Shown here: piece after piece, positions 2,771 to 51,750 of the stretch
How positions within the stretch are numbered: the first letter of the stretch is position 1
Layout: each line of letters opens with the position of its first letter
Origin: a virus
IMG/VR virus record: IMGVR_UViG_3300018432_000001
Location: 32,001-96,000 of that record
Length of the DNA stretch: 64,000 bases
Reading direction: 5' to 3' (one strand)
Made by a program: the position numbers and the translations under genes
Notes under the pieces: model-generated
Database searches by the model: none
The model's input: only the letters and a program-made list of their open reading frames with translations
Told to the model about the DNA's origin: nothing

Positions 2771-3301
2771 TCAGTTCAGGTGGAGGGCCAGGTACTCGTC
2801 GCTGTAGCCCATGGAGATGAGCAGGTCGGTAAGCCGTTCGCCGGGCCGGTCGTCGGGGTTCTCGTGGGTGCCCCACTCGTCCGGGGGAATCGCGAAGTAC
2901 TCGCCTTGGAAGGTCTCCAGGTGTTCGGGTGGCATGCGGTAGGCCATCTCACCGAGCCAGTGGAGCATGTGTTTATCGAACAATTTCAGGTCTTCGGACC
3001 TGAGCCCTTGCATCCACTCGATTGCGGCGATGGTGGCTGCCTCAGCGCCGTCGTATCCGATGCGATCGGCCACCTGTGTGGGCACGACCAGGTCCAGGTC
3101 GACGTTGAACAGGTAGTGCACAGTGAACGGCGCGTGGGGCTCGCCCGGCACCCGGTGGTCTTCACGGATGAACAGCGCCCGGCCAGCGGGCAGCCGCCAC
3201 ACCTCGGTAATGCCGCTGCGGGCGATGCCGTGGCGGGGACTGCCGAAGAACGACGGTCGCCGGGCTTTGATGCGAGAGGCCAGCTCGGTCTCGTTGATCA
3301 C
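2771..3301 (-). CDS. hypothetical protein
   Basis: GTG start after AAGGAG. Confidence 0.7.
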   Translation of the reverse strand: MINETELASRIKARRPSFFGSPRHGIARSGITEVWRLPAGRALFIREDHRVPGEPHAPFTVHYLFNVDLDLVVPTQVADRIGYDGAEAATIAAIEWMQGLRSEDLKLFDKHMLHWLGEMAYRMPPEHLETFQGEYFAIPPDEWGTHENPDDRPGERLTDLLISMGYSDEYLALHLN

Positions 3302-3373
3302 GGGAATGTCTCCTTGTCGTAGCGGATTCGGCGAGCGCACCCCGAGCCGGGGCGGGGTGCGTCACCGGGACCG

Positions 3374-3904
3374 CTACGCCTGCGGTCCGGGAATGTCGCG
3401 GGCTTCAAACCACGCGGTCAGGGTCTCGGTGCCCCAGTTGATGGCGACCATCCTGGCGGCGCCACTCAGGTAGGCCTCGGCCACGTAGTCGAGCCTGAGC
3501 ATCTGCGCGCATCGCTGCTTGTACTCCTTCAGGGCCTGCGCATCCGTCTTTCCCCACGGCACCGGGTTCTCGAACGCGCTGGTGAGGCGCATGTAGATCT
3601 CGTCGTCGAACGGGTCGGTCATGACCTCAGGCAGGTGCGAGGCCTCGCACAGCGACAGCACCTTCTTCATCGACCGCGCCTGCAACAGGCACTGGCGGAT
3701 CGAGTTGTCGACCAGGGTGTTCATGCGGTCCTGCCAGAACTCCTCGGTGTCCCACTCGTGGTAGTTGTTGATCGACTCCGTGAGGTGTGTGAGCAGCCAG
3801 AGCCACCAGGACCGTTCGCCCGCGTGGTTCTCGCCCTCAGGCCAGAACCCGTGCGAGGTGATGTGCGCTTCGGCCGCGACGTAATCGAATGCGGGTGAGG
3901 TCAT
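3374..3904 (-). CDS. hypothetical protein
   Basis: ORF track; GGAG RBS; operon packing. Confidence 0.7.
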   Translation of the reverse strand: MTSPAFDYVAAEAHITSHGFWPEGENHAGERSWWLWLLTHLTESINNYHEWDTEEFWQDRMNTLVDNSIRQCLLQARSMKKVLSLCEASHLPEVMTDPFDDEIYMRLTSAFENPVPWGKTDAQALKEYKQRCAQMLRLDYVAEAYLSGAARMVAINWGTETLTAWFEARDIPGPQA

Positions 3905-6756: not shown

Positions 6757-6972
6757 CTACCTTTCGGGGGTCTGGGTGGTCGAGTACTTGCGCCAAGCGG
6801 CGTCGAAGCACTCCGGGTTGACGAACACCTCGCGGCTGTTGCACACATGCGCCTGCATGTATCCGGTCTCGGACTGCTTCTGGTACTTGGGTTTCAGCGA
6901 GCCGACAGTGATCATCGCGCCGCCGACGGCGGCAAGATCCTTGCCGCAGCCAGCGCACTCGGGATACGCCAT
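6757..6972 (-). CDS. small Cys-rich protein
   Basis: MAYPECAGCG...HVC...EC. Confidence 0.65.
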   Translation of the reverse strand: MAYPECAGCGKDLAAVGGAMITVGSLKPKYQKQSETGYMQAHVCNSREVFVNPECFDAAWRKYSTTQTPER

Positions 6973-7089
6973 GATAATGATTCGCCTTTCTGTCGAAACG
7001 ATATCGGACAGGGCCGACATGGATGCCAGGCCAATGGCACGCGTGCCCCGGCCAGCGGCCGGGGCACGATGCGAGAGGACCGGCGAGTG

Positions 7090-7713
7090 CTACTGGCCCG
7101 GGTCGGCGACGGCGACCCACGACAGCTCGCTCATGTACGAGTCGGGCCAGCGCCTCAACCCTTCTTCCCAGGCGATGCAGGTCCGGGGCCCCCAGTGCCG
7201 GTCGCTGTAGTCACGCTGGGTGGACTTGACCGTGCGCGGGGCGTCGACGAAGCTGCGCCTCTCGAACGCCACGACGACGTCCCCCTCGCAGACGTCATCG
7301 GCCCGCTTCCACCGGCCGATGTCGCCCAGGCGCGGCACCGCGTGCCTCCCGAACAGCACTCTCGCCAGCATCTTCTCGTGCCGGGGTGCGTAGTTGTACT
7401 CCTCGGGCCGGAACGTCATGGCCTCCAGGTCTTCGATGACCAGACGCTCGATCGTGCTTGTCGTCCCGGTCTGGGGCCACTGGGCGGTGCCGGTCTCCAC
7501 CCACAGGCGCGAGAAGACGACCGTCTCGACGCCGTCGTGGTCCTCGGGCTTGTCGTGCGTGAACACGAACGCCTCATCGGGGTGCGCCTCCCAGGTGTAC
7601 TCCTCGGAGATCCATCGCTCCTCGATCGGGACGGCGAGCGCGGGCTCCAGCTGGTGCTGCTGCTCCCAGTACATCAGCGACAGCTCTTTCCGCTTGCCCT
7701 GTTCCTTCGTCAT
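7090..7713 (-). CDS. hypothetical protein
   Basis: AAAGGAG RBS; MTKEQG start. Confidence 0.7.
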   Translation of the reverse strand: MTKEQGKRKELSLMYWEQQHQLEPALAVPIEERWISEEYTWEAHPDEAFVFTHDKPEDHDGVETVVFSRLWVETGTAQWPQTGTTSTIERLVIEDLEAMTFRPEEYNYAPRHEKMLARVLFGRHAVPRLGDIGRWKRADDVCEGDVVVAFERRSFVDAPRTVKSTQRDYSDRHWGPRTCIAWEEGLRRWPDSYMSELSWVAVADPGQ

Positions 7714-8290: not shown

Positions 8291-8323
8291 AAGAAGCCCA
8301 CCCGGCATGTCCCGGATGGGCTT
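8291..8323 (-). terminator. intrinsic terminator-like hairpin
   Basis: AAGCCCA-CCGG...CCGG-TGGGCTT stem followed by CTTC on the minus strand. Confidence 0.5.
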
Positions 8324-8370
8324 GTTCCTGCGCCCGGCGCTTACGCGCCGGGCTCGGATCGTCTAGTGGT

Positions 8371-9072
8371 TCAGCCTTGGAAGTACTCCACGTCGCCGCC
8401 GATCGACACGCGCGTCGGGATCGTCCCCGCCTCCGTCTGCACTTCGGGGTACGCCGTGTCGTAGTGGGTGCTGATGCGCAGCTCGCCGTCGGCGAAGTAC
8501 ACGTAGACCTGGACGCCGCCGATCTCCACGCATGGCAGCGTGTCATCCCATCCGCCCGGACTGAACCAGGCCGAGCAGTTCAGGTCGGTCGCATCCTTGT
8601 CGCTGAGTTTGCCCTTGACCAGCGGCACCAGGTCGGCCTGCCCGCGCCCGTAGTTGTCGGTCAGGGTCAGCGTGCGCCGCTCTTCGCGACCGTCGGGGTA
8701 CACCAGGACAAGCACGTCACCGGTGTCCAGGAGTGGGTGGTCTTTCGCGTACACCTGGCCGGACGCGGCTGTGCCGGTCGAGTTGCCGTGCGCGCTGATC
8801 ACCGTGGCCTCGGGCGAGAGCAGGACCGAGAACTCCTCGTCGGTGCCCTTGTTCTGCGGGTCGAGGTACTTGCCGTCGCCGCCGATCGGCCCCATCGCGC
8901 CCCGCCTGGTCTCGCCGGGGTGCGGGTTCGGGCGGTTCCGGTTGCTCCACACCTGGATACGGGTCGGTCCCCCGTCGCCCTTGGTGCGGTAGACGTACGC
9001 CGAGGTGTACTCGATGCCGTAATGCTTGCGCCGGTACTCGTCACCCTCGGCCAACTCGATACGATGTTCCAT
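8371..9072 (-). CDS. hypothetical protein
   Basis: ORF track; GGAG RBS. Confidence 0.7.
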   Translation of the reverse strand: MEHRIELAEGDEYRRKHYGIEYTSAYVYRTKGDGGPTRIQVWSNRNRPNPHPGETRRGAMGPIGGDGKYLDPQNKGTDEEFSVLLSPEATVISAHGNSTGTAASGQVYAKDHPLLDTGDVLVLVYPDGREERRTLTLTDNYGRGQADLVPLVKGKLSDKDATDLNCSAWFSPGGWDDTLPCVEIGGVQVYVYFADGELRISTHYDTAYPEVQTEAGTIPTRVSIGGDVEYFQG

Positions 9073-11200: not shown

Positions 11201-11271
11201 CTGCGGTTCTTCCCTTCGCTTAGTTCCACAGCGTGGGACCAGCACCCCCGTGCCTGGTCACCGCTGAAGGA

Positions 11272-11883
11272 CTACGCCTTGGGGTGGTGCGACTCCCCGT
11301 CCTGGCGGATCGGTTCGTGCGGTTCATCCCGAATGCACGCGGCCGACCGCTCGTCGTACACGCTGAATCCGTCGATGCGGGGCTCGTACTGGACGCGGCG
11401 TCCGCAGTGGCGGCACTCCCACGTAGCCGGGTGGCCGCCGGACGCGATCAAGTCGAGCCTGGGTTCGTGGTCCGGGAAGTACTGCTTCACGGTGAGGTAC
11501 CCGCCGTGGTGCTCGGGCTCGCCGGTGTTCGCCGACCGCTCCCGGTTGATGACTCCCGCCGGGTAGTAGCACCGCTGATAGTGGTGGTAGACGTGTCCCA
11601 TCCACGCCTCGGAGCACACCAGTTTCTGCGCCGCGATCAGCTCGGCCGCCTTGGCGCGCACCTCCTCGGGCACGTTCTCGCCCTCGGCCGCGTACTTGAT
11701 CTGCATGTACGCGTCCTCGTCCCAGCGGTTACGCCGCTTGACGTCGACCTCGTACGAGTACCGCAGGTTCACGTGCCCCGGCGGACTCGCGTAGCCGCCC
11801 ATGCCCTGCCCGTCATCGATGATCCGGTGACGCTCTCGCCGGTCGCTCGTGACCGCCTCGATCACAACCGTTCTCTTACCCAT
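11272..11883 (-). CDS. hypothetical protein with C-terminal CxxC
   Basis: GAGGAG RBS; ECRHCG. Confidence 0.7.
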   Translation of the reverse strand: MGKRTVVIEAVTSDRRERHRIIDDGQGMGGYASPPGHVNLRYSYEVDVKRRNRWDEDAYMQIKYAAEGENVPEEVRAKAAELIAAQKLVCSEAWMGHVYHHYQRCYYPAGVINRERSANTGEPEHHGGYLTVKQYFPDHEPRLDLIASGGHPATWECRHCGRRVQYEPRIDGFSVYDERSAACIRDEPHEPIRQDGESHHPKA

Positions 11884-11953
11884 ACACCCGTCACTCCTCT
11901 TGCGAATAGGTCTACAGCGGACGGCCGGGCGATGCCCGGCCCCCACTGAGGGC

Positions 11954-12520
11954 CTACTCGACGTAGTCACCTGCGCCGCCCTTGGTGACGTCGAAGACGT
12001 ACACCCACTGCGGATAGCCGGTCGCGCGCCCGGCCACCGACCGAAACGCCGCGCCCTTGCGGTTCATGGACCGCTCGGCCCACTCGGTCCAGTCGAACAG
12101 GTCCCCGATCGCGTTGTTGGAGAGGTTGCCCCAACTGGTGAACCCGCGACGCGTCCCGTCCCAGGTGGCGAGGTGGTCCAGCAAGGAACCCTTCCCCAGA
12201 TCCTCGGGACTGGCGAACTGGTCGCGGCAGAACGTCTCGTTCGATTCCCACCGGCCTTTGAAGCCGCCCGCGTTCATCCATCGGATGACCGCCGAGAACG
12301 GATGCGTGTCATCCGCGCGGCGCCACGCGTGCGCGGCGTCGATGCCGTCCCTGCCGTGGGTCTCCTCCAGCTTGACCGCGAGCGGATGCGGGACGTTGTC
12401 CCACATGCTCGACGTCAGCGTCGGGTTCTCCTCCTGCGCCAGGGCGAACGACAGCTGCCGACCCGACAGCTCGGTCACGTACTGCCGCTTCCACAGCTCG
12501 GTCCTGTATGGATCTTCCAT
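11954..12520 (-). CDS. hypothetical protein
   Basis: AAGGAG RBS; MEDPYRTE start. Confidence 0.7.
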   Translation of the reverse strand: MEDPYRTELWKRQYVTELSGRQLSFALAQEENPTLTSSMWDNVPHPLAVKLEETHGRDGIDAAHAWRRADDTHPFSAVIRWMNAGGFKGRWESNETFCRDQFASPEDLGKGSLLDHLATWDGTRRGFTSWGNLSNNAIGDLFDWTEWAERSMNRKGAAFRSVAGRATGYPQWVYVFDVTKGGAGDYVE

Positions 12521-12522
12521 GC

Positions 12523-12909
12523 CTACGCTCCTTCCTCGGTGATCTCGTCGCACTCCGGCTCGAAGCACGGCACCGCCCACACCTCGACGCCGCGCGTCAC
12601 GTGCGAGAGCTTGCCGCCCCCCATCGGGGAACCTTTCGGGCCGTACTTGCTGGCCCCGCTCTCCATGGCGTCGACGATCTTCTCGATCCCGGGCGTGGAG
12701 ATGCGCGAGTCGTAGAGCTGGCCCGCGTTGCGGAACGCGCGCTCTTCCTCGCCGGTCTGGGCGATCCACGCGAAGTGGTAGAAGTGCCCGGCCACGATGT
12801 TCACCGCGTCGTACACGGTCACGCCGTGGGCGACGTTGTCGGGGTTGGGCATCTCGCCCACCTCGCTGTACCCGACGACCCAGTGATAGGCGGTATAGAT
12901 ACGGGTCAT
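12523..12909 (-). CDS. hypothetical protein
   Basis: ORF track; GAGGA RBS. Confidence 0.7.
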   Translation of the reverse strand: MTRIYTAYHWVVGYSEVGEMPNPDNVAHGVTVYDAVNIVAGHFYHFAWIAQTGEEERAFRNAGQLYDSRISTPGIEKIVDAMESGASKYGPKGSPMGGGKLSHVTRGVEVWAVPCFEPECDEITEEGA

Positions 12910-12916
12910 CCGGTCC

Positions 12917-13219
12917 TCAGCCTCCGTACCCGGGCATGTCGAGCCCGTCCGTCATCTCCCACGGCTCGGGCGCGAAGGACCCGGCTTCGACGTCCTCGTC
13001 CGCCTCGCCGCGTGCCTCGGCCAGCTCGTGCCGCAGGGTCGCGACCTCGCGCTCCAGCTCCCGGATGCGGTCGGCCTCGTGTGTCTGGCTCGCCAGCCGC
13101 ACCACTGCCACCTCGTCCTCGTTATACGGGTCGAAGTCCTCGCCGGGGATGAACACCGGCGACCCGATCGGGTCCTCGCCGACCGCCTGCCGATACGTCA
13201 GTCGATCCACTGTGCACAC
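12917..13219 (-). CDS. acidic coiled-coil protein
   Basis: RIRELEREVATLRHELAE heptads. Confidence 0.65.
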   Translation of the reverse strand: MCTVDRLTYRQAVGEDPIGSPVFIPGEDFDPYNEDEVAVVRLASQTHEADRIRELEREVATLRHELAEARGEADEDVEAGSFAPEPWEMTDGLDMPGYGG

Positions 13220-13250
13220 CTTTCATCGATCAACTTGAATGCGAAGTATC

Positions 13251-13269
13251 GTTGCTGTTCAACAGCAAC
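13251..13269. promoter_or_regulatory. operator-like palindrome in AT-rich promoter island
   Basis: GTTGCTGTT-C-AACAGCAAC perfect 9-bp inverted repeat. Confidence 0.65.
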
Positions 13270-13333
13270 AATCAATCGAACGATTTCTATATCACTGGGG
13301 GTCGGAACACCACCGTGCCCGACCCCCATCTCC

Positions 13334-13837
13334 TTACAATCCGGTGAGCCTCGCGAAGTTGTCGAAGGCGTACACCACCGGCGACCCCGAGGGATTGACG
13401 CTCGCGAGGAACGCGAAGTGCGCCGGGAATCGGTCCTCGTGTTCGACCGCGTACCCCACCGACTCCCAGATCGGGCTCACGTCGCTGATTTCCATGTTCG
13501 GGAACCCGAGCTGTTCGCGCTGGCCCCACTTGTCGAACCAGCGCTGAAACTCCCCGGCGAACTGGCGCTCGGCGAACTCGGCCATGTCGGTGAAATCCCC
13601 GAGATAACCGCCCGCCAGCATCCACCGCACGGTGTGCACCGCAGTCGCACCCGAACCCCTGTTGCCGCGCTCGATGTACACCAGCGCAGCGCTGGCCGCG
13701 AGCGGCCCGTGCTGTTCGAGCAGTTCCATCACCGCCGGATGCGCGCCCTCCCACTGAGGGCCCGCTTCCCAGTGCTCGCCGAGCACTTCCTGGAACATCT
13801 TCTTGGACAGTGTGATCACGTCTTTGGCTACTTCCAT
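13334..13837 (-). CDS. putative ArdA-like antirestriction protein
   Basis: YLGDFTDMAEFAERQF resembles the ArdA C-terminal YxGx(F/Y)xxxxxFA motif; acidic. Confidence 0.45.
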   Translation of the reverse strand: MEVAKDVITLSKKMFQEVLGEHWEAGPQWEGAHPAVMELLEQHGPLAASAALVYIERGNRGSGATAVHTVRWMLAGGYLGDFTDMAEFAERQFAGEFQRWFDKWGQREQLGFPNMEISDVSPIWESVGYAVEHEDRFPAHFAFLASVNPSGSPVVYAFDNFARLTGL

Positions 13838-13850
13838 GACATCCCTTCCT

Positions 13851-14162
13851 CTACCCTTCGGTGAGTTCCTGCAAGACCAGCGCGGACACCGCCAGCGCGG
13901 CCCGCGTCATCGCCTCGGACATGTCGCGGATGCCGACGCCGTACGTCGGAGCCGTCGTCGGCAGGCTCACGACCTTCCACGCGTCGTGGTAGCGCATGCC
14001 CGCCGTGGGCCCGGTCTCGCGCTTCTGGAGCTCGAACGACCAGAGGTCACCCTTCTCGTCCGTGTCCAGGAAGATGCACGCCCGCACCTCCGCGAACGAC
14101 GCATCGATGATCTCGACCGGGTCGTTCATGGTGTCGTCGTCCACTCGGTACAGCTGTGCCAT
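13851..14162 (-). CDS. hypothetical protein
   Basis: AAGGAG RBS; MAQLYRV. Confidence 0.7.
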   Translation of the reverse strand: MAQLYRVDDDTMNDPVEIIDASFAEVRACIFLDTDEKGDLWSFELQKRETGPTAGMRYHDAWKVVSLPTTAPTYGVGIRDMSEAMTRAALAVSALVLQELTEG

Positions 14163-14234
14163 TCGTGCTCCTTCGCTCATCGGCTAACACCACGGCCGAG
14201 ACCAGCACCCCCGTGCCTGGTCACGACCGAACTC

Positions 14235-14648
14235 CTAGCCGTCGGCCTTGATCGCCTTCCCGTCCGCGACCCCGTCGCGATACGCGCTTGCCACATGGGA
14301 GGCGACCTGCTCGGCCGCCTTCCACTCGTGCTGGTACATCGGCGCACTGGGGTTGACGCCCGCGTTCCTCACCTGCTCCCGCATCGGCCCCGGAATGAGG
14401 TCACCCGTGAGGCCTGCGCCCTCGACCACACCGCACAGGAACGCCACCACGCACAGCGCCCCGGTGGTCCGATCGTCGTAGGTCAGGGCCCGCTGATCGG
14501 AGATGTACCGGACCCCGTGACCGAGGTTCGTGCCGATCGAGAACCACGGTGTGCCCGTGACCTTCTCGACTGCGCGGATCACCGCCTCCACCTCATCGCG
14601 GTGCCACTCGAAGCGCTCCCTATCCGGGTCCTTCTTGACGCCGCTCAC
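14235..14648 (-). CDS. hypothetical protein
   Basis: GTGA overlap; GGGGAG RBS. Confidence 0.65.
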   Translation of the reverse strand: MSGVKKDPDRERFEWHRDEVEAVIRAVEKVTGTPWFSIGTNLGHGVRYISDQRALTYDDRTTGALCVVAFLCGVVEGAGLTGDLIPGPMREQVRNAGVNPSAPMYQHEWKAAEQVASHVASAYRDGVADGKAIKADG

Positions 14649-14926
14649 GCGCTCCCCTTCCCCTGCTGCTGTTCGATGACGCGTTCGGCCGCCTTCTCGC
14701 ACCGCTTGCACAGCCGCTGGTCGAACAGCAGGGCCTTGTACCGGACCTGCTTCAGGGCTTCCTCGACCGTGGCGAAGACCTCGGCGCCATAGCCCAGGTT
14801 CGTACCCCCGGGCCGGTAGGAGAGGGCCGCGCACTTCATGACCGGCTCGGTCTCGCGGTCTTCGGGTACCTCCTGAATGTGGGTCACTCGCGGGCTGTGC
14901 CTGAGCCGGTAGCTTCTCTTGCCCAT
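14645..14926 (-). CDS. small Zn-binding-type protein
   Basis: TH...KC...LCKRC; AAGGAG RBS. Confidence 0.7.
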   Translation of the reverse strand: MGKRSYRLRHSPRVTHIQEVPEDRETEPVMKCAALSYRPGGTNLGYGAEVFATVEEALKQVRYKALLFDQRLCKRCEKAAERVIEQQQGKGSA

Positions 14927-14996
14927 GCCTTACTCCTTCCGAATAGACACTCAGCGCGGGACCAGGCACCCCCGTGCCCTGGTCACCACTGATCGC

Positions 14997-15407
14997 CTAC
15001 TGTCCGGGCCTGCTCAGCGCGGCGAGCCTGCGCATCTCCGCGATGCCCGCGTCACGTCCGGCTTTCAACCCGGGCATGTAGTCGGAGATGTTGGCTACGT
15101 CGTGCCACTCCTCGAACCGCTCCCGGTACCGGCCAAGCGTCGGGTTGTCGTACGTCTTGGTGATCGTGCCGCCTTCCAGCCGCTGCACCGAGTACGCGAA
15201 GGACGCCGGACCCGACAGGTAGGCGTCCTCGTTCTCGTCCTCGGTGTCCTCCGGCCCGACGTAGACCATCTCGGTGAAGTCGTACACCTCAACCCGCCAC
15301 TGGCAGGTTTCGACGCCGGTCCCGTTGCCGTCGGCCGCAAGCCACGCCTGCGTCCCGTCGACAACCTCGCCGTCCGGGTTGAGGTACCAGGTTTCCGTTG
15401 CACTCAT
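14997..15407 (-). CDS. acidic hypothetical protein
   Basis: MSATETWY start. Confidence 0.7.
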   Translation of the reverse strand: MSATETWYLNPDGEVVDGTQAWLAADGNGTGVETCQWRVEVYDFTEMVYVGPEDTEDENEDAYLSGPASFAYSVQRLEGGTITKTYDNPTLGRYRERFEEWHDVANISDYMPGLKAGRDAGIAEMRRLAALSRPGQ

Positions 15408-15450
15408 GGGATTCTCTTGCACTCCTATCGATTCGCTAGGAATTTGGGGG

Positions 15451-15822
15451 TTAGAGGCACGCCTCCACCCGTTCGAGCGCGACACCCATCGCCGCCTCGG
15501 CCGCGCCGCTGGTGTAGTGCTTGCTGCGGTACGCCGCCATCTCCTCGGCCGGAATGACACCACCCGCGAGGTTGTGCACGGGCTTCCCCCGCCCGTAGTA
15601 GCGGCTCGCTTCGAAGGTGAACGTCGGCCACACCGACTCGTCGCCCGCCTCGTGCGCCGCGATCGTCTCCTCGCTCGCCCACCCAGTGATCTGGATGTGC
15701 ACGAGGTCGCCGTCGACCTTGTAGATCCGGTTCTCACGCCCGACCTTCCAGCCCGGGAACTCCCGCAGCTCGTCCGAGGAACGCTCGGCAGTCTCCATCG
15801 TCAGCTTGAGCGTGCTACCCAC
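15451..15822 (-). CDS. hypothetical protein
   Basis: ORF track; operon packing. Confidence 0.65.
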   Translation of the reverse strand: MGSTLKLTMETAERSSDELREFPGWKVGRENRIYKVDGDLVHIQITGWASEETIAAHEAGDESVWPTFTFEASRYYGRGKPVHNLAGGVIPAEEMAAYRSKHYTSGAAEAAMGVALERVEACL

Positions 15823-16258
15823 GCGGCGCCCCCTTCAGGTTCGCGTACTCGACCCAGGTGTAACCCGACTCGACCCGGTAGGGCCGAATCAGGTTCAGCA
15901 CCTGCTGGAACTTCTTGATCGGCATGTCCCCGTAGTCCACGAGGATGCGCATTTGGGCGTACCCGCCGGAGTCGACGAACCCAGCCTCGACCCCGTCCTC
16001 GGTGAACCGCTGCAACGCCTCGACCAGGGCGATCTCGCGGCGACCGGCCGCACCCTCCCACCCGTTGAACGTGACGTCGTAGAACGGCCAGGTCGCCGTC
16101 CACTCCAGCGTCAGGCACCCGCGCCGCTCCGGAATCGACAGCGTCCGCTGCGGGAACGCCTTGATCAGCGCCGCGAACGACGCCAGCTCGTTCTCGTCCG
16201 TGGACGGGAGCGAATCGAGCAGTTCGTTGAACGCTTCCCGCGTGTCCTTCTTACCCAA
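15815..16258 (-). CDS. hypothetical protein
   Basis: TTG start after AGGAGG. Confidence 0.7.
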   Translation of the reverse strand: MGKKDTREAFNELLDSLPSTDENELASFAALIKAFPQRTLSIPERRGCLTLEWTATWPFYDVTFNGWEGAAGRREIALVEALQRFTEDGVEAGFVDSGGYAQMRILVDYGDMPIKKFQQVLNLIRPYRVESGYTWVEYANLKGAPRG

Positions 16259-16369
16259 ACCGAGCCTCCTAATGTGAGGAATCTACAGCCTGTGTGGTTC
16301 GACAGACCCCACGAACCGGCCCGCACCCCCGTGCGCGGACCGACCATGGGCAACCAGCGAACAACCCGG

Positions 16370-16723
16370 TTACGCCTTCGACGCCCGCTCCTGCCGCTCC
16401 TTCACCGCCTCGGCATCCCGGCGTCCCTCGGTCTCGGCCTCACTGTCGAACCGGCCCGAGGCGTGAAGGTATTCGAGCACCGCTCGCGTGTCCGGATCGG
16501 ACAGGTCGACGCCGAACACGGCCGCGACCCCGCCCAGATAGGACAGGGCCGACGCCGCACCCGGACCCCCGAGCCAGAGCCGCCCGCGAAACCCGCCGTG
16601 GTTCGGGATGTAGTGCTTGCCCTTCCCGTCGCCGGGATTGTTGATCTGCAACCAGTCCCGGTTGCCGGTCGCCTCGCATACCGGCAACAGCACCTGGTGC
16701 ACTCTCGCTGATGTCAACCGCAT
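16370..16723 (-). CDS. hypothetical protein
   Basis: GAGGTG RBS. Confidence 0.65.
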   Translation of the reverse strand: MRLTSARVHQVLLPVCEATGNRDWLQINNPGDGKGKHYIPNHGGFRGRLWLGGPGAASALSYLGGVAAVFGVDLSDPDTRAVLEYLHASGRFDSEAETEGRRDAEAVKERQERASKA

Positions 16724-16740
16724 CGCTCACCTCATGTTCT

Positions 16741-16959
16741 CTACTTGCTGGTGACGCCGTACTCGGCGATCTCCTCGGGACGCAGCCCCGCGAGCCACGC
16801 ATCGCACTCGGCCTCGAACGCGTCCTGTTCGAACGGAATCGTGGCGTGCCCGACGCCGTCAGTGGTGGTCCAGACGTTGTTGGTGGCGACGGCGTACTCG
16901 CCGCCCTCCCACGTGAAGGTCACTCCCCGACACGAGTACGACAGTTCCTCGTCTCCCAT
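16741..16959 (-). CDS. small acidic protein
   Basis: AGGAGG RBS. Confidence 0.7.
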   Translation of the reverse strand: MGDEELSYSCRGVTFTWEGGEYAVATNNVWTTTDGVGHATIPFEQDAFEAECDAWLAGLRPEEIAEYGVTSK

Positions 16960-16970
16960 ATGCGTGCCTC

Positions 16971-17486
16971 CTACTCGTCGTCCTCTTCGCTGTCATCGCC
17001 GCTGTCGTCCTCGTAGTAGGACTTCACGGCCGCGAGGATCGCCGCCGCTTCCGCTCGGCCCTTCCACGACCCGGTCCCGTCCCAGATGAAGTAGTGACTC
17101 AGCTCCTCGGGCACCGCGCGGAGCAGCGCGGTCTTTCCCAGCGGCTCGGCGAGCACCCCCAGGGTGTGCACCTCGTTGATGATCGACAGGCCCCACCCGT
17201 TCGCGAACTTGTGGATCTCGTGAGCGCCCTTGTCGTCAACCCACGTGTCGGACGGCTTGAACTCCGCACCCATGCTGGGTCTCCCTTCGGTATAACCGGT
17301 GACCTTCTCGCTCGGCAGGATCTCGCGGATCTTGTCGATGACTAGTTGCTCTCCCTCTTCATGCCCGGATGCCCACCCCTGGTCGAACCCGGCGGCCCAC
17401 TTCTGGTTTCTGACAGTGGCGCCGACCTCGTACCCGTCCACGAACTCGCGCAGGGCATCGAGCATTTCCTGATTCCGGATCTTCAC
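16971..17486 (-). CDS. hypothetical protein
   Basis: KFANGWGLSII motif; acidic tail. Confidence 0.7.
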   Translation of the reverse strand: MKIRNQEMLDALREFVDGYEVGATVRNQKWAAGFDQGWASGHEEGEQLVIDKIREILPSEKVTGYTEGRPSMGAEFKPSDTWVDDKGAHEIHKFANGWGLSIINEVHTLGVLAEPLGKTALLRAVPEELSHYFIWDGTGSWKGRAEAAAILAAVKSYYEDDSGDDSEEDDE

Positions 17487-17508
17487 CGGCGCCCTTTCCT
17501 TCCTCCTG

Positions 17509-17685
17509 CTAGTCGACCGCCGTGTGCACGACCGGCTTCCCGTCGAGCTCGGCCAGCGTCACGCTGATACGCGGGTACTTCTTGCGGCCCTTGTACAGCT
17601 CCCGCGCTTTCACGCTCGCCTCATACGAGGACTCGGCCTCGATCTCGTGTCGCTTGCCCTCCACGAACGCGATGTATCCGTTCAC
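17509..17685 (-). CDS. conserved small phage protein
   Basis: MNGYIAF...EIEAESSYEA...LAELDGKPVVHTA; GAGAGGA RBS. Confidence 0.7.
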   Translation of the reverse strand: MNGYIAFVEGKRHEIEAESSYEASVKARELYKGRKKYPRISVTLAELDGKPVVHTAVD

Positions 17686-17756
17686 GCGAACCGTCCTCTC
17701 GAATAGACCTTCAGCGGACGCGCCTGCGCCATCGGCGCTGGCGGACCACTGGACAC

Positions 17757-17882
17757 CTACTCGCGTGCCCGTACCCGGGCTGCGAACTCCCACCACCGCT
17801 GATTGCGGCGCAACCTTTGCGCCGCAACGAGCCGGGCGATATCCGCATCCGAGAGCGGGAGCGCCACCGTGATGCCTTCCAT
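17757..17882 (-). CDS. small hypothetical protein
   Basis: Fills gap between genes; start uncertain. Confidence 0.4.
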   Translation of the reverse strand: MEGITVALPLSDADIARLVAAQRLRRNQRWWEFAARVRARE

Positions 17883-17892
17883 CTCGATCACT

Positions 17893-18441
17893 TCACCCAC
17901 TGGCATGCACCGCACCCTCGCGAACCCTCCTTTCGAGCGCGCACAGCACACCACCGACCGCGTCCCGGATGGGCTGGTGCTTGTAGTTGTGCTCCCGCGC
18001 CTGGGCCAGGGACTTACGCCACTCGTTGAGCGCGTCCTGGTAGACCCCGTACGCGAACAACCCGTGCGTGTCCTCTCGGTAGTCCTCACGCTTGGGCGCT
18101 TCCACGGGACCCCGATACGCGAGGTCACGCGCCGACTTCGGGTTGAACCGCCCGGCCGGAGCAACCCGGGTGTACAGGTGCTGGTTCACACCGAGCGTGG
18201 GAACGTCACTGAGGACGTGCCCCCACAGGTACTCGACCGTGACCGGTTTCCCCGGCCAGTACGACGCCATGACGACCGCCCGCTTGCCGTACCCGTGATG
18301 CTTCACGGTGAACGTCGCCTCCCACGTCTTCCGCTCGCGCGGGTTCACGTTGCAGACGTCGCGGTACGACTCATCGAACACCGATTCCTCCACTACCCAA
18401 TCGCCTTGCGACCAGGTATTGAAGTAGTACAAAACGCCCAT
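17893..18441 (-). CDS. hypothetical protein
   Basis: ORF track; GGAGAGG RBS. Confidence 0.7.
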   Translation of the reverse strand: MGVLYYFNTWSQGDWVVEESVFDESYRDVCNVNPRERKTWEATFTVKHHGYGKRAVVMASYWPGKPVTVEYLWGHVLSDVPTLGVNQHLYTRVAPAGRFNPKSARDLAYRGPVEAPKREDYREDTHGLFAYGVYQDALNEWRKSLAQAREHNYKHQPIRDAVGGVLCALERRVREGAVHASG

Positions 18442-18461
18442 GCCGTTGCCTCTCCTCTCGC

Positions 18462-18941
18462 TTAGCTGTGCGCGTACACCACGCCGTCCTCACCCGCGTA
18501 CAGGTGGAACCCGCCGTACGGCTGGCAGTGGGCGGTGAGCCGGTCACCGACCTCACCCATGCCCCGGTCCCAGAACCCGGCGCCCGCCCTGTTGCGGGTG
18601 AGCACGAAATCGTGACCGATCTGCCCGGCCCCGACCGCGACGACATCAACCCACATCGCGTGGCAGAAATCGGCGACCTCCCGCGTGAACTCCACAGCGA
18701 CCGCTGCGTCGATGTCCTCGCGTTGGCACATCGCACTGAGGGACGCGCCCTCTACGTCCGCTGACGAGGACCACAGGGCCGTATCCAGACCCGTCCACGC
18801 CACGTCCGCGACGTAGTCGAAATCCAGATCCCACTGCGAGCACGCCACGCATGCGGCATTGTCGACCTCGCTGGTGTGCTCAGCCCACCACGCGTCGACC
18901 GCCGCATGCACCAGGTCGTAACCCGTTACCGCACCCGTCAC
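18462..18941 (-). CDS. conserved phage early protein (GHDFxLTRNxxGAGFWDR family)
   Basis: ALWSS...GHDFVLTRNRAGAGFWDR motif. Confidence 0.75.
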   Translation of the reverse strand: MTGAVTGYDLVHAAVDAWWAEHTSEVDNAACVACSQWDLDFDYVADVAWTGLDTALWSSSADVEGASLSAMCQREDIDAAVAVEFTREVADFCHAMWVDVVAVGAGQIGHDFVLTRNRAGAGFWDRGMGEVGDRLTAHCQPYGGFHLYAGEDGVVYAHS

Positions 18942-19360
18942 CGGCCCTCCTCAGTCTTCCGTTCGGGCATCGGGCCGCGCTCATCACTGAACGTCATGAC
19001 CGTGCTGATGCACCGCACGCCCGCGACCTGCCGACTCGTCACCTCGTGACCGAACCCGGGGTAGCGGATGCGCACCCGGAACGGGCTGTCTTGCCCGGGG
19101 TGGTGGTGGATGTACTCGACCACGGCAACGGCGGTGTTCCGCTCCCACTGCCCCAGGTCACGCAGGTACTGGTCCCACGTGATCTCAAGAGGATGACCGG
19201 ACGAGGCGAAATCCACCAGCACCCGAGCATCCTCAATCGGCAAGCCCGTGATCTGGGCGTACTCATGCGCCAGATCCGCCAGCGCAGGCCAACCCAGACG
19301 CTTCGCACCGTCGACCACTCGCGTCCCTTCCCACGTCGCATCCGTGAGCTTTTCCCGCAT
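18938..19360 (-). CDS. hypothetical protein
   Basis: GAGGAGG RBS; MREKLTD. Confidence 0.7.
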   Translation of the reverse strand: MREKLTDATWEGTRVVDGAKRLGWPALADLAHEYAQITGLPIEDARVLVDFASSGHPLEITWDQYLRDLGQWERNTAVAVVEYIHHHPGQDSPFRVRIRYPGFGHEVTSRQVAGVRCISTVMTFSDERGPMPERKTEEGR

Positions 19361-19433
19361 GCACCCTCCTCTCCTCGAATAGACCTTCAGCGGACCCGCC
19401 GCACCCCCGTGCGCTGGCGAACCACTGTGACGC

Positions 19434-19997
19434 CTACTCCTCTTCGACCTTGACCGCGTCCTCGTACAGGACCGAGCCCATGCCTTCCTTGCGGTAGTGG
19501 CAGATGGCCTCCAGCACCGTCTCCAGTTCATCGGGCGTCATGTCCGCGTACCCGAACTGGATCACGACCTGCGCATACCCGCGCTCATCGCGGTAGTACG
19601 CCTCCACTGTCGGGTTCGTGACGTCGCCCTCGTAGTAGGCGAACTTGGCCGCCTCGATCAGTTCGTCCTCGTTCTCACCGGCCCACCCCACGAACCCGTT
19701 GAACCGCAGCTCCTCGGCGTTGTCGACCCACTCCATGACCAGACCGGGCGGGCACGGGAACGCCTCGATCATCTCGGTTTTCGCTTTCGTGTCCGGGTGC
19801 TGCTCGTGAGCGATGGCCTTGACCACCGAATCGGGCACGCCCAGCTCGGACAGGACCCGCTCGGCCGTGTCCTCCTCGTCTAGCTCAGCCTCCCCGCGCA
19901 GGTACTCGTCCGCGAGCAGCCGGTACACCAGCTCCGCAGCACTCCGCGCGTTCTGCCGCTGCGGGTCGTTCCCCAACCCGCTCCACACGTCTGCCAT
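19434..19997 (-). CDS. acidic hypothetical protein
   Basis: GAGGAGG RBS. Confidence 0.75.
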   Translation of the reverse strand: MADVWSGLGNDPQRQNARSAAELVYRLLADEYLRGEAELDEEDTAERVLSELGVPDSVVKAIAHEQHPDTKAKTEMIEAFPCPPGLVMEWVDNAEELRFNGFVGWAGENEDELIEAAKFAYYEGDVTNPTVEAYYRDERGYAQVVIQFGYADMTPDELETVLEAICHYRKEGMGSVLYEDAVKVEEE

Positions 19998-20010
19998 CTG
20001 CGCCTCCTCG

Positions 20011-20370
20011 TTAACTTGTCAACAGCTTGTCGGCCTCGTCCAGCGCGACCTCCCACGCCAGCATCTTGATCAGCTCACCGGGCATCGCAGGACGCAACCG
20101 GTGATTCTCGATCACCCCCGAGCACCGCGCCATCGCCTCGGCGTCGTCGTCCGGGGCGAACACCTCGACCTCGAACCGGTACATCCCGCCAGGGGTCACC
20201 CCGCGACGGGTCCCGAACCCGATGTTGTCGGCCGCGAACACCGTCACCGCGCACCACCCGCCGTTAGCGAGCGCGTACTTGCGCGTCTGCGCCCACGCCT
20301 CCCACATCCCGTTGAACTTCTCGTCCCGGGTGGTGCGCCCGATCTCGGCCCCGTCGTGCAACTGGCTCAC
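20011..20370 (-). CDS. hypothetical protein
   Basis: GTGA overlap; GGAGGTG RBS. Confidence 0.65.
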   Translation of the reverse strand: MSQLHDGAEIGRTTRDEKFNGMWEAWAQTRKYALANGGWCAVTVFAADNIGFGTRRGVTPGGMYRFEVEVFAPDDDAEAMARCSGVIENHRLRPAMPGELIKMLAWEVALDEADKLLTS

Positions 20371-20855
20371 TCGCTCACCTCCTCGACGCCGACCGCCGCG
20401 AACAGCTCGGACCGCAACCCGGCAGAGACGCCGTCGGGGTGCAAGCTGTACTCGAACCGCTGATTTTGCTCGTACTGGTACTGCTCGTAGGCGTACACCC
20501 ACACGGTTCCCAGCGGCTGCGACTCCCAGCCGGGAGACGTGGACGCCTCCCAGAGAGAATCCGGGTACACGTTCCAACCCTTGAGCGCGTCCCCGAGAGC
20601 GACCGCAAGCGTGTCGCACACGCAGCACCCGTCCTTTTCGGAGCCGCACTCGCAGTCCTTCTCGACCAGTTCCCAGACGACCGCGAGCGTGCCCAGCTTC
20701 TCGGGCTCGTCCGCGTCCTCTTCCCAGCGGGCGAACTCGGTCCGGTACATGCGCACCACGGGCAGCCCGGTCTCACCCGCGCGGATCTCGCGGTGCTCCT
20801 CGGGCGTGATCTTGTCGAACTCCTCATCAACCCGGAGCTCTTTCAACTCCCACAT
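20367..20855 (-). CDS. acidic Cys-cluster protein
   Basis: CECGSEKDGCCVCD; AGGAGG RBS. Confidence 0.7.
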   Translation of the reverse strand: MWELKELRVDEEFDKITPEEHREIRAGETGLPVVRMYRTEFARWEEDADEPEKLGTLAVVWELVEKDCECGSEKDGCCVCDTLAVALGDALKGWNVYPDSLWEASTSPGWESQPLGTVWVYAYEQYQYEQNQRFEYSLHPDGVSAGLRSELFAAVGVEEVSE

Positions 20856-20941
20856 GTGAGACCTCCTCTCAAATCAGTAGTGTCCTAGAAGGTTGTGACA
20901 ACCCGCCCCCACCCCCGTGGGAGACGGGCTCTCGGAACCCG

Positions 20942-21070
20942 CTACAACCAGCAGTGACCCGCCTTCCGGAACCACCGCGTATGACGCCACAGACCCCAAC
21001 CCGTCCGCGCCCGGAACCGCACCAGCCACCCGCCGCACTGCTTGCAGCGGCGCCGCTCCCACCGCTTCAC
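20942..21070 (-). CDS. small Arg/Trp-rich Cys/His peptide
   Basis: MKRWERRRCKQCGGWL...WRH...HCWL; GTGA overlap. Confidence 0.45.
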   Translation of the reverse strand: MKRWERRRCKQCGGWLVRFRARTGWGLWRHTRWFRKAGHCWL

Positions 21071-21330
21071 GACCCGGCCCCCGCTCTCGGCAGCTCCACC
21101 AGGTACTCGGTCAACTGCCCATACCCGCTGTTGTACGTCGTGTCACGGGAAGTCCCGAACACCCGGACCATGACCAGCTTCCCGGCCCCGACCACCGCGC
21201 CAGCCTCCACCAGCACCTCACGCCACGGCCGCTCCTGGCCCTCCTCCTCGTCGCCGGACTCGCCCCGGTAGATCACCCGACCCACCAGCGAACCCCGGTC
21301 ACGGTGCAACCGCACCAACTCCCGACCCAT
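21067..21330 (-). CDS. hypothetical protein
   Basis: AGGAGG RBS; MGRELVRL. Confidence 0.65.
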   Translation of the reverse strand: MGRELVRLHRDRGSLVGRVIYRGESGDEEEGQERPWREVLVEAGAVVGAGKLVMVRVFGTSRDTTYNSGYGQLTEYLVELPRAGAGS

Positions 21331-21457
21331 CACGGACCTCCTCTCACGTTGGGAACCTTGCGGCAACCCGGCACGCACCCCCGTGCGCCTGCCGGGCACC
21401 GTAAAGCGCCCTACTTGCGGACCCGCGCACCTTCGTACGCAGGGTTAACGACCCGCT

Positions 21458-22018: not shown

Positions 22019-22151
22019 CGTATGTCCTTTCTTGGTTGGAAACCTGACGGAAACCCGCCCCCACGCCAAGGACGGGCTCCCGTCAAACGTCCAACGATCA
22101 GGCGCGTCGCGGGCCGCCCCCGAAGGGACGAGACGGACTCACACCTGGCTC

Positions 22152-23162: not shown

Positions 23163-23251
23163 GACAACTCCTCTCCTCGTGAAAACACTCAGGCCCCACC
23201 CGGAAACCCGGATGAGGCCTAAGCAGGTTCACGACCTGCGCCGAACCAACC

Positions 23252-23944: not shown

Positions 23945-23969
23945 AAAAAAGGCCGCCCGTGGGCAGCCT
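23945..23969 (-). terminator. intrinsic terminator
   Basis: AGGCTGCCC-AC-GGGCGGCC-TTTTTT downstream of 23987-24928. Confidence 0.75.
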
Positions 23970-24928: not shown

Positions 24929-25130
24929 GATGATATCTCCTCAATAGTCCCATTTCGCGCAACTAGTCCCCTTCGCATATAGCTAGCCATGGCACAGTTC
25001 GCCCCCAAGGGAGCGCCCAATGCGGGCGGGATTCGTCGCGCGTCTGCGCTTCAAAACACACTGTTCGGTTAGGAAAAAACAGTCGCCGCCCGGGTTCCGC
25101 GTTCCGTGTGGTTCGCGTCGCTCGGAAGCG

Positions 25131-25148
25131 ATGACATAACTATGTCAT
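25131..25148. promoter_or_regulatory. operator-like palindrome
   Basis: ATGACATA-AC-TATGTCAT. Confidence 0.6.
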
Positions 25149-26084
25149 AGGCCAGCGCGCCCAATTTTGGGGGTCCTGACCTGGGGATTCATTTTGTCCG
25201 TTTTGCGTTTCGCCTGGTCACGGGCTTGTGGGAGGAAATGGGGTCAGCAGTCAAGAGGGTATGACAGCGCTTGCCACAAAGGTCACGGTTTGGTAAAGCC
25301 TGCGTATGCCCTGGTCAGCGGCTCAACATTTCCGAAATTCGCACGGTATCGACATTGTGGACAGTCAAGTGGAAAGCGCTTGCTTTACACAGTGGATGGT
25401 CACAGTAGTCACGCTAGGCAACACGCGTCACAAGCGGCCAGCGCGGGCAGTGATCGCGCGTTGTGACGGGATGGGCTTAGGGGGACGAGACGATGCGGAT
25501 GAGGCATTGAGGGTGTGAGCTGGGAGGATGCAGCGTTTCGCCTGGTAGATTCGTCGCACTGTCGCAAGTGGAGCCGAGAGCGTCCGAAGTGGACACGATG
25601 GGGTGGGAGTGGCGTATGCCTGCCAGCGCGTCAGATGATGCCAATGAGGCATTGTGGCGCTGGCCTGCGACGATACGCGTTTCCCCTGGTAGATTGCTCG
25701 CGACCGGTTCGGGTAGGCCGCTAGGGGAGGCGTAGCGCGCTGGCAGTGGCGCGGCCTAGCCCACGGGTAGGGATGCACGCTGCGAGCGGCGTAGGGAGGC
25801 GTACAGCGGCCTAGGGAGGCAGGTACGCCAGCGCGGCCTAGCCGCTCCCTTCACACGGTGCGCATGTGTGCGCGAATAGCACAGTGCCGCGCTGGCGTCA
25901 AGGGTGAGGCCATGATCGTTATCGTATTGTGATGTCATGCTGGCAAGCAATGGAGCGCTCCCAAGAATGGAGCCGCATGTCAAAGGCACATTCCATGCAT
26001 ACCGAGTATCAACACATTGTTTACCGAATGCCACACAGTGAGACGCCAGCTACCAAACGCAAGCGCATCGCTACACAGAGCTAG

Positions 26085-26342
26085 TCCACATGAGAGGCAG
26101 CTATACGCGCGGCTAGTGCCAGCGCGCCACTACACATAATCCACAAGCGACGCTCACCAATTCCACACAGGACACATCCACATGAGACACGCTCGCCTCC
26201 ACAAAGGACGTCCACACAGGACAGAGCGAAGATCATGCATCCACAAGCGACAGTCCACACAGGATCAATCCAAAATCGACAGTCCACATCGGAGGGCCGA
26301 TCCGTCCACAGTGGACGCCACCCCCTTAAAAGATAGGGGGGT
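26085..26342 (+). repeat. cluster of ten co-oriented TCCACA boxes ending in two palindromes
   Basis: TCCACA at 26085, 26140, 26162, 26177, 26198, 26211, 26240, 26254, 26283, 26305; GTCCAC-A-GTGGAC at 26304; CCCCCT-TAAAAGAT-AGGGGG at 26321. Confidence 0.8.
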
Positions 26343-26472
26343 CGTGAAATTTTCCAGGATTCGAGCGTATCACATGAGGATCGCTCGTGAATGCAGGGTT
26401 TTGCCATTGTCGTGATGGTGTTGTGCCTGGTGTGGCCCGAGTTTGTTTTGTAGGTAGTGGAACCTTCTCGGT

Positions 26473-49493: not shown

Positions 49494-49511
49494 GCAGAGA
49501 GGAGAGCCGCT

Positions 49512-51737: not shown

Positions 51738-51750
51738 TTAGGAGATAGCC

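Follow-up and report, generated by a model that had tools for sequence, protein, structure and literature searches.

The 64,000-nucleotide stretch of viral DNA analyzed here, bases 32,001-96,000 of the IMG/VR record IMGVR_UViG_3300018432_000001 (hereafter the window, to which all positions refer unless stated otherwise), carries ten related hairpin elements at the junctions of a leftward-oriented gene cluster. That these elements are under selection for RNA pairing on the sense strand is well supported by the data presented below. We tentatively view them as intercistronic RNA punctuation, in which they would act as processing and/or stability hairpins in a manner resembling the RNase III sites of phage T7. 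The source genome comprises 142,477 bp with direct terminal repeats and a GC content of 66%. Its portal protein is only 25-32% identical to the portals of Arthrobacter, Curtobacterium, Streptomyces, and Microbacterium phages, and a megablast search with 11 kb of the sequence returned no match among cultured phages; hence, we take the source to be an uncultured actinophage-like virus.

The family first becomes apparent through a 12-mer, GCACCCCCGTGC, which the original prediction had placed at positions 11242, 14205, 14966, 16323, 19401, and 21375. All six copies are indeed present, on the same strand and within 11.2-21.4 kb, against 0.03 copies expected in the window, and none of 100 shuffles reached six; the 12-mer was not found elsewhere in the 142,477-bp genome. 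The motif had been reported as a plus-strand element; its letters are as given, but the transcribed strand is the minus strand. Since the genes in this region lie on the minus strand, GCACCCCCGTGC is the plus-strand reading of an RNA apex with the sequence GCAC-GGGG-GUGC. The variants described alongside it are likewise in place: the compensatory CCAC-GGGG-GUGG at 20909-20920, the GGUG-loop form CACGGTGGTG at 13308-13317, and two triloop forms with a CAGTGG...CCGCTG basal stem at 11915-11948 and 17712-17751. A covariance model built from the ten copies (A1/R1) and refined as R2 recovers exactly these ten elements, whose paralogous arms co-vary, and has no other significant match in the genome. 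In the direction of transcription, the elements are as follows.

Element H, 21347..21415, minus strand: stop codon (TAG), hairpin, and ribosome-binding site (RBS) in succession; apex GCGCAC-GGGG-GUGCG; 26 bp; dG -41.8; recovered by covariance models R1/R2 and by folding.
Element G, 20882..20948, minus strand: compensatory apex CCAC-GGGG-GUGG; 26 bp; dG -38.9.
Element F, 19374..19442, minus strand: base GAGUAGGC / CAGUGG ... CCGCUG / GUCUAUUCG; GGGG apex; 25 bp.
Element t17, 17698..17765, minus strand: the base of F with the triloop apex GCGCC-GAU-GGCGC; 26 bp.
Element E, 16295..16363, minus strand: GGGG apex on an unrelated lower stem; two extra small hairpins on its flanks; 111-nt spacer.
Element D, 14938..15005, minus strand: UAGGCGAU-CAGUGG-UGACCAGG-GCAC-GGGG...; 25 bp; followed by GGAAGGAG and ATG.
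Element C, 14179..14243, minus strand: GGGG apex; 24 bp.
Element B, 13279..13345, minus strand: GGUG-loop variant; 14-bp core (18 bp in total); 123-nt spacer with a second, AT-rich hairpin.
Element t11, 11901..11962, minus strand: F-type base with the triloop apex GGGC-AUC-GCCC; 25 bp; dG -42.7.
Element A, 11215..11280, minus strand: GGGG apex; 23 bp; directly before a gene for a protein of 323 amino acids.

Each element folds into a single unbranched, irregular hairpin of 23-26 bp (18 bp in B) with a dG of -30 to -43 kcal/mol and z-scores of -2.9 to -6.1, and its GC content lies between 55 and 71%. The outer stem, P1, has the consensus GAGUAGGC, which pairs with GUCUAUUC via two G·U pairs; it is followed inward by a small internal loop, the stem P2 (CAGUGG/CCGCUG), a variable stem P3, in general a bulged purine, and finally the apex GCAC-GGGG-GUGC. 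The in-frame stop codon of the upstream gene usually forms part of the 5' strand of P1. A TAG stop occupies a fixed position of the model in 8 of the 10 copies in this genome (p=0.003 against a rough genome-wide TAG use of 33%) and in 16 of 22 copies over the three genomes in which the family was found (see below). The proposal that the hairpins lie between a stop codon and the next RBS consequently holds for their intergenic placement, but the stop codon itself is part of the basal stem. In most copies, no more than about 10 nt separate the 3' strand of P1 from a purine-rich RBS (GAGAGGAGG or GAAGGAG), which precedes the start codon. In agreement with the original prediction, no U-tract is present: the 10 nt past the stem contain 0-1 T in 8 of the 10 elements, and a run of T residues is found in none of them.

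The apex is conserved in sequence. CACGGGGGUG is identical in 7 of the 10 copies, whereas directly beneath it the stems of D, E, G, and H and of the hairpin at the D position of the relative G001 have diverged past alignment. In the 17 copies of the GGGG type from the three genomes, the loop is unchanged throughout, and a bulged purine recurs 4-5 bp below it. Three copies carry other loops (GAU, AUC, and GGUG), and an alternative register of the common loop would read ACGGGG instead of GGGG.

Selection at the RNA level, as had been proposed for these hairpins, is supported by the covariation of their arms, an excess of G·U pairs, a sense-strand bias of the fold, and substitutions that preserve pairing. 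According to whole-genome scans, hairpins are frequent everywhere in this genome of 66% GC, so that generic stem counts are uninformative and only family-specific tests carry weight. When the arms were swapped between elements, cognate arms paired with an average of -37.0 kcal/mol and non-cognate arms with -22.5 kcal/mol, and none of 100,000 permutations was as good; the lower stems are thus unlike in sequence and yet paired, just as had been stated. In the covariance-model alignment, which was made to fit the structure and contains some antisense rows, though only a few, 83% of the cells are paired, compared with 68% in column shuffles and about 40% in controls with slid partners. Eighteen of its 25 pairs are changed on both sides, with a covariation score of 0.418 versus 0.187 (0/500 shuffles).

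These pairings are those of the sense strand. An A·C juxtaposition corresponds to a G·U pair on the opposite strand, and among the sense rows 71 G·U pairs stand against 14 A·C juxtapositions when every copy is counted, and 38 against 7 when each orthologous group contributes a single representative; from base composition, a G·U share of 54% would be predicted (p=1.3e-5 for the representatives). The sense fold is better than the antisense fold by 9.9 kcal/mol, as compared with 2.3 kcal/mol in 336 control windows of the same arm (p=6e-7). Comparison of orthologues gives 12 substitutions that fall on paired positions of the inner stems; 10 leave the pair intact, each being a transition to or from G·U, and 2 disrupt it. 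Orthologous hairpin cores are 93-97% identical, whereas the flanking DNA is 73-88% identical.

Hairpins with a stop codon in the stem and an RBS behind it were also observed, with unrelated sequence, at 3301-3374, 6972-7090, and 8301-8371, one example being GCG-TAG-CGG...CCGCUACG followed by AAGGAG. Because these junctions share the layout and not the sequence, the stop-in-stem architecture is more general in this phage than the GGGG family. At genome positions 126,374-126,393, outside the window and on the minus strand, a small hairpin, CGCACGAC-CCCC-GUUGUGCG, presents a loop complementary to GGGG; it lies near a tRNA cluster in a hairpin-rich region, and the complementarity is probably due to chance.

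The hairpins occupy a particular type of gene junction. At 1,000-23,200, nearly all genes, as called from their high GC content at third codon positions (GC3) and with heuristically called starts, lie on the minus strand. The junction lengths are bimodal, with tight junctions of -17 to +22 nt on the one hand and, on the other, spacers of about 70-125 nt that a single hairpin fills. Every long junction of the hypervariable region is occupied by a member of the hairpin family, and the packed gene groups between hairpins comprise 1-4 genes each. The genes themselves are ORFans; none of 20 neighboring open reading frames (ORFs) has a Pfam match, and their PHROGs matches are to proteins of unknown function.

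Two related IMG/VR genomes, G001 (141 kb) and G002 (138 kb) from IMG samples 3300049573 and 3300021184, carry the family as well, and the 323-amino-acid protein next to element A has counterparts there with 86 and 80% amino acid identity, respectively. G001 has 5 copies plus one partial copy and G002 has 7, all of them in the syntenic region of about 10 kb and on the transcribed strand. In five more remote relatives retrieved via the portal protein, G003-G007 (portal identity 51-96%, mostly fragments), the covariance model found no convincing match, and G003 and G004 contain no clustered repeated hairpin apex. A metagenome scan with the neighboring protein retrieved the source contig of G002 alone. 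When viral contigs were searched with apex patterns, an 18-mer gave 0 matches and a 15-mer gave 37 singletons, none of which was confirmed by the covariance model; these are chance matches. In prokaryotic genome contigs, a P2+P1 pattern returned at least 120 singletons in unrelated taxa and one marginal R2 match (E=0.005), and this single pattern scan revealed no REP-like copies in host genomes. At Rfam gathering thresholds, only two tRNAs were detected; at E<=1, the only addition was a spurious miRNA match, and the elements themselves remained without a match.

Comparison of the three genomes reveals mosaicism within the hairpin region. Elements t11, E, and G have orthologues in both relatives, and in both a 428-bp gene is inserted directly 3' of hairpin G. 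In the orthologues of element C, GCAC is changed to GUGC or GCGC, with pairing kept only via G·U. Element D is identical in G002 from CAGUGG to the RBS despite a different upstream gene, and the corresponding position in G001 carries a GGGG apex on an unrelated stem. At the position of H, the base is conserved in G001 but is topped by another upper stem, of 22 bp and with UUCG; G002 has retained no more than the 3' half of H, fused to the 5' half of a UUCG hairpin, and one gene is missing there. The counterpart of this UUCG hairpin in our genome is the following feature.

UUCG-loop intergenic hairpin of different sequence, 22101..22141, minus strand: in G002, it supplies the 5' half of a fused hairpin and H the 3' half.

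Element A is absent from both relatives, and G001 furthermore lacks the gene that t11 and A enclose in our genome and has a single t11-type hairpin left. Half a B-type hairpin is retained at another junction of G001. Within our genome, F and t17 have flanks that are 81% identical and differ in their apexes (family D5), and apex and base modules have been exchanged among copies.

The original prediction had also suggested that the hairpins could act as recombination points, so that gene-content breakpoints among relatives would coincide with them. Some breakpoints do: 15 of 48 lie within 20 nt of a hairpin versus 7% expected at random positions (p=7e-7), and the endpoints of a few rearrangements lie inside hairpins. 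However, 7 of 10 junctions with a hairpin and 12 of 17 without one are broken (Fisher p=0.68). Moreover, the phage encodes neither a tyrosine or serine recombinase (PF00589 is absent genome-wide, with positive control genomes) nor a Y1 (HUH) transposase (PF01797). The idea is therefore only weakly borne out. As the breakpoint excess exists versus random positions and not versus other junctions, the hairpins would be at most passive homology patches, a role that has been suggested for the PeSLs of T4-type phages (PMC2839356; see below), and a dedicated recombination system is not demonstrable from these sequences.

How might such elements work? According to our tentative model, the ten elements would be cis-acting RNA structures in a long leftward polycistronic transcript. 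The hairpins may be cleaved by a host nuclease specific for double strands, in the way that RNase III processes the early transcript of T7; they may also, or instead, stop exonucleases. In both cases, the message would fall into segments of 1-4 genes with a stability and translation of their own, uncoupled from neighboring groups. The conserved apex would be the probable recognition point of a trans-acting factor, and, as a by-product, the shared sequences could provide homology patches for the gain and loss of cassettes. Whether a hairpin is cleaved or stabilized, and by which factor, is a part of this model that we infer. RNase III substrates measure about two helical turns, and the stem length of the elements is in this range; with 23-26 bp (18 bp in B), they belong among irregular hairpins of at least about 20 bp that lie between cistrons on the sense strand only. 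Of the RNA functions that had been suggested (processing, antitermination, or protein binding), processing, or else a role in stability, would suit this anatomy best.

Several considerations weigh against this model. Cleavage, effects on stability, and even co-transcription of the genes are steps that we infer; the presence of RNase III in the host is assumed, and the phage genome itself contains no RNase III domain. Bacterial RNase III is not known to recognize tetraloops, and the conserved GGGG apex is consequently not explained by an RNase III model alone. At the same time, the apex sequence is not essential for a generic hairpin function, since GAU, AUC, and GGUG loops and a UUCG stem occur. 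Finally, the family is present in only three close genomes, and the covariation rests mostly on paralogues and on a structure-fitted alignment.

The conservation of the apex leads to another possibility, which may compete with the processing model or add a layer to it. Because the apex is kept over diverged stems and GGGG is invariant in 17 copies, a sequence-specific recognition can be argued for. The apex hairpin, with its tetraloop, its stem of 4-5 bp, and a bulged purine on the 5' side, might then be an RNA operator for a translational repressor or activator of phage or host, for a Cas6/Csy4-like endoribonuclease, or for an N-like antiterminator, by which about ten cassettes would be co-controlled. 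The operators of the MS2 and PP7 coat proteins have a similar bulged-purine layout, and the constancy of CACGGGGGUG and of the loop over unalignable stems would be expected of such a site. We nevertheless consider an operator unlikely: no candidate protein emerged from the neighboring ORFs, triloop or UUCG-stem copies occur at equivalent positions, no boxA-like linear element was seen by eye beside the hairpins, and ten nut-like sites within 10 kb would be unprecedented for antitermination. A more specific version, in which the GGGG apex and the bulged purine form the operator of a dedicated phage RNA-binding protein or endoribonuclease and the hairpins double as linkers for cassette exchange, appears to us less likely still. 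If it were true, one protein acting at about ten sites would switch or cut the ORFan cassette array in one step, and the array would represent a phage-private post-transcriptional regulon. A role in translation, with the stop codon and the next Shine-Dalgarno sequence brought together at the base of the hairpin for long-range coupling or insulation, has the positions of stop and RBS relative to P1 in its favor, as well as the fact that all other junctions are short enough for direct coupling. In G002 (L047:8116-8184), the stop-proximal strand is even a perfect 8-nt complement of the RBS. But predictions for RBS pairing range between 0.09 and 1.0 and are not consistent in the partner, so that masking is not general, and the conserved apex would be left unexplained; we regard this role as improbable.

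Termination and DNA-level functions fare no better. In an actinophage of high GC content, stable hairpins rich in GC at the ends of cistrons could be intrinsic terminators without a U-tract, attenuators, or pause sites, by which transcription would be graded along the operon, and with the stop codon in the stem a terminating ribosome would modulate their folding; U-less terminators have reportedly been claimed for the early region of phiC31 (Ingham et al., 1995, cited in PMC2602773). There is little to recommend this explanation, however, in view of the missing U-tract, the canonical hairpin-plus-U terminators elsewhere on the same phage strand, and the RBS and start codon close to the stem with no promoter between them, an arrangement in which efficient termination would silence the downstream cassettes. 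The mycobacterial RNA polymerase, moreover, is reported to need a U-tract (PMC3993855). Similarly doubtful are DNA-level linkers for the shuffling of ORFan cassettes, comparable to the promoter-early stem-loops (PeSLs) of T4-type phages or to integron attC sites. The mosaic of ORFans, the breakpoint excess over random positions, t11-gene-A in our genome versus a single hairpin in G001, the chimeric hairpin of G002 at H, and the exchange of apex and base modules would all suit such linkers, and PeSL crossovers have been mapped inside the stem-loop (PMC2839356). Against them stand the equal breakage of junctions with and without hairpins, the absence of the recombinases and transposase named above, and the asymmetry of G·U over A·C together with the wobble-preserving substitutions, which are unexpected for a site in duplex DNA. 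The restriction of the family to one small clade and one 10-kb region, and the existence of half-hairpin remnants, might finally suggest palindromic repeats that are selfish or neutral, multiply by duplication, and play no role for the phage. This we deem very improbable, given orthologous cores that are more conserved than their flanks, changes that preserve RNA pairing, co-varying arms, and a position and orientation fixed relative to the stop codon and the RBS.

Several other identities were considered and rejected. The elements are not canonical intrinsic terminators, as they lack a U-tract, have the next RBS close behind the stem in most copies, are not accompanied by matches to sigma-70-type promoters, and coexist with true U-tract terminators on the same strand; a terminator scan listed none of the ten as terminator-like. 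No sigma-70-type promoter was matched in 9-28 kb, a scan which non-consensus actinobacterial promoters could escape. A lambda-type nut site does not fit a GGGG (or ACGGGG) loop, which is not a GNRA-like pentaloop on a five-bp stem; in addition, inspection by eye revealed no conserved linear box next to the hairpins, and Rfam gave no match. An integron attC array and a REP/RAYT system were dismissed because the genome lacks PF00589 and PF01797, respectively, and self-cleaving ribozymes (twister, hammerhead) because Rfam gave no match and the fold is one unbranched hairpin. Read-through of the stop codon into the next gene is incompatible with stop-to-start distances that are not consistently in frame. 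A hairpin promoter for a phage polymerase was discarded as well, since no single-subunit (T7-like) RNA polymerase was matched in a search that lacked a positive control. Tandem gene duplication does not account for the repeats either: the only paralogous pair in the hairpin region, 15815-16258 just downstream of element E and 19434-19997 just upstream of element F (both on the minus strand), is weak (34% identity over 109 amino acids) and out of register with the hairpins.

In transcript sense, an ORF-poor stretch with iterons and two terminators precede the genes of the hairpin array.

Canonical terminator, 23,186-23,225, minus strand: 18-bp stem with a U-tract; upstream, in transcript sense, of the hairpin array.
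Canonical terminator, 23,950-23,969, minus strand: 8-bp stem followed by a T-run; likewise upstream, in transcript sense, of the hairpin array.

Evidently, the host polymerase is served by ordinary terminators near the hairpin array. The ORF-poor stretch (24,930-26,370) has a lower GC content (0.59-0.61), and its GC skew flips sign with the coding strand unchanged. At 26,070-26,332, it contains at least six direct repeats of the type TCCACA(C/A)AGGAC / ATCCACAAGCGAC, which resemble DnaA boxes (TTATCCACA). The stretch may represent a replication origin or a control region located upstream of the genes punctuated by hairpins. Elsewhere in the window (48,192-52,638, plus strand), three neighboring tail-region genes contain many internal repeats of about 90-100 amino acids with 40-54% identity, which look like arrays of Ig/FN3-like domains.

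The closest functional analogues of the hairpin family are the RNase III sites of T7 (R0.3, R0.5, R1, R1.1, and others), which are found in the early and late transcripts of this phage. In both cases, the cistrons of a polycistronic phage message are separated by irregular hairpins, about ten in number and ~50-65 nt in length, that contain bulges or internal loops; they occur on the sense strand only, have no terminator tail, and share some sequence on differing stems. Unlike the T7 sites, the hairpins described here have a conserved G-rich tetraloop apex, a feature that bacterial RNase III is not known to require, and a stop codon in the basal stem, their probable host is a high-GC actinobacterium, and their cleavage is a prediction. 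The REP, BOX, and Correia/NEMIS elements are co-transcribed intergenic palindromes, too, and shape mRNA stability, with some of them being targets of RNase III; these, however, are chromosomal and genome-wide, and some are mobilized by RAYT proteins, whereas our phage lacks the Y1 transposase and host copies were not seen in the single pattern scan.

The closest architectural analogues are the PeSLs, the SAS/ESAS elements, and the inverted repeats of actinophages. PeSLs were described in the T4-type phages RB49 and phi1 (Arbiol et al., 2010; PMC2839356). Like the elements studied here, these repeated modules of ~100 bp reach from the upstream stop to the downstream start, are found on either side of ORFans in a hyperplastic region, and include a stem-loop rich in G, and a cassette between two copies in one genome can correspond to a single, sometimes chimeric, copy in a relative. 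PeSLs differ in having a strong sigma-70 promoter together with an AT-rich region and in using the stem-loop as a terminator. The elements reported here, with 55-71% GC and neither a promoter match nor an AT-rich part nor a U-tract, are for these reasons not PeSL cassettes; their hairpin fills the whole spacer, and their association with breakpoints is no stronger than that of other gene junctions.

SAS/ESAS elements occur in Cluster K mycobacteriophages and Cluster EF Microbacterium phages, and inverted repeats of 17-18 bp in Clusters O and EG (PMC3203893; PMC7302621; PMC12699233). In Cluster K, the 13-bp SAS GGGATAGGAGCCC is located at the RBS, and imperfect inverted repeats of 17 bp, 4-13 bp apart, lie just upstream of it (PMC3203893). 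The layout is alike: these elements are also actinophage-specific, intergenic, present in ~8-19 copies, co-oriented with the genes, and positioned directly upstream of RBS and start codon; they form imperfect inverted repeats with a short spacer that are conserved within a cluster beside unrelated genes, and have no known function. There is, however, no sequence similarity. The RBS regions here read GAGAGGAGG or GAAGGAG and not the 13-bp consensus, the hairpins are longer (23-26 bp versus 17-bp arms) and include the upstream stop codon, and the family is confined to one 10-kb region and shows RNA-level selection through its G·U asymmetry and covariation. Without a promoter, a SAS consensus, or a U-tract, the family fails the defining features of each of these analogues.

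Repeated intergenic motifs are common in actinophages, as the SAS/ESAS elements and the repeats of Clusters O and EG illustrate, and none of them has an established function. The hairpin family described here is informative in this respect, as its sense-strand RNA reading is evident from the sequence, its anatomy is modular, and it occupies every long junction of a hypervariable region. It may thus be a good case in which to study how long messages are segmented by large lytic phages of high-GC hosts and how swappable ORFan cassettes are kept expressed, and the ~65-nt module could find use as an insulator part in the design of actinobacterial operons.

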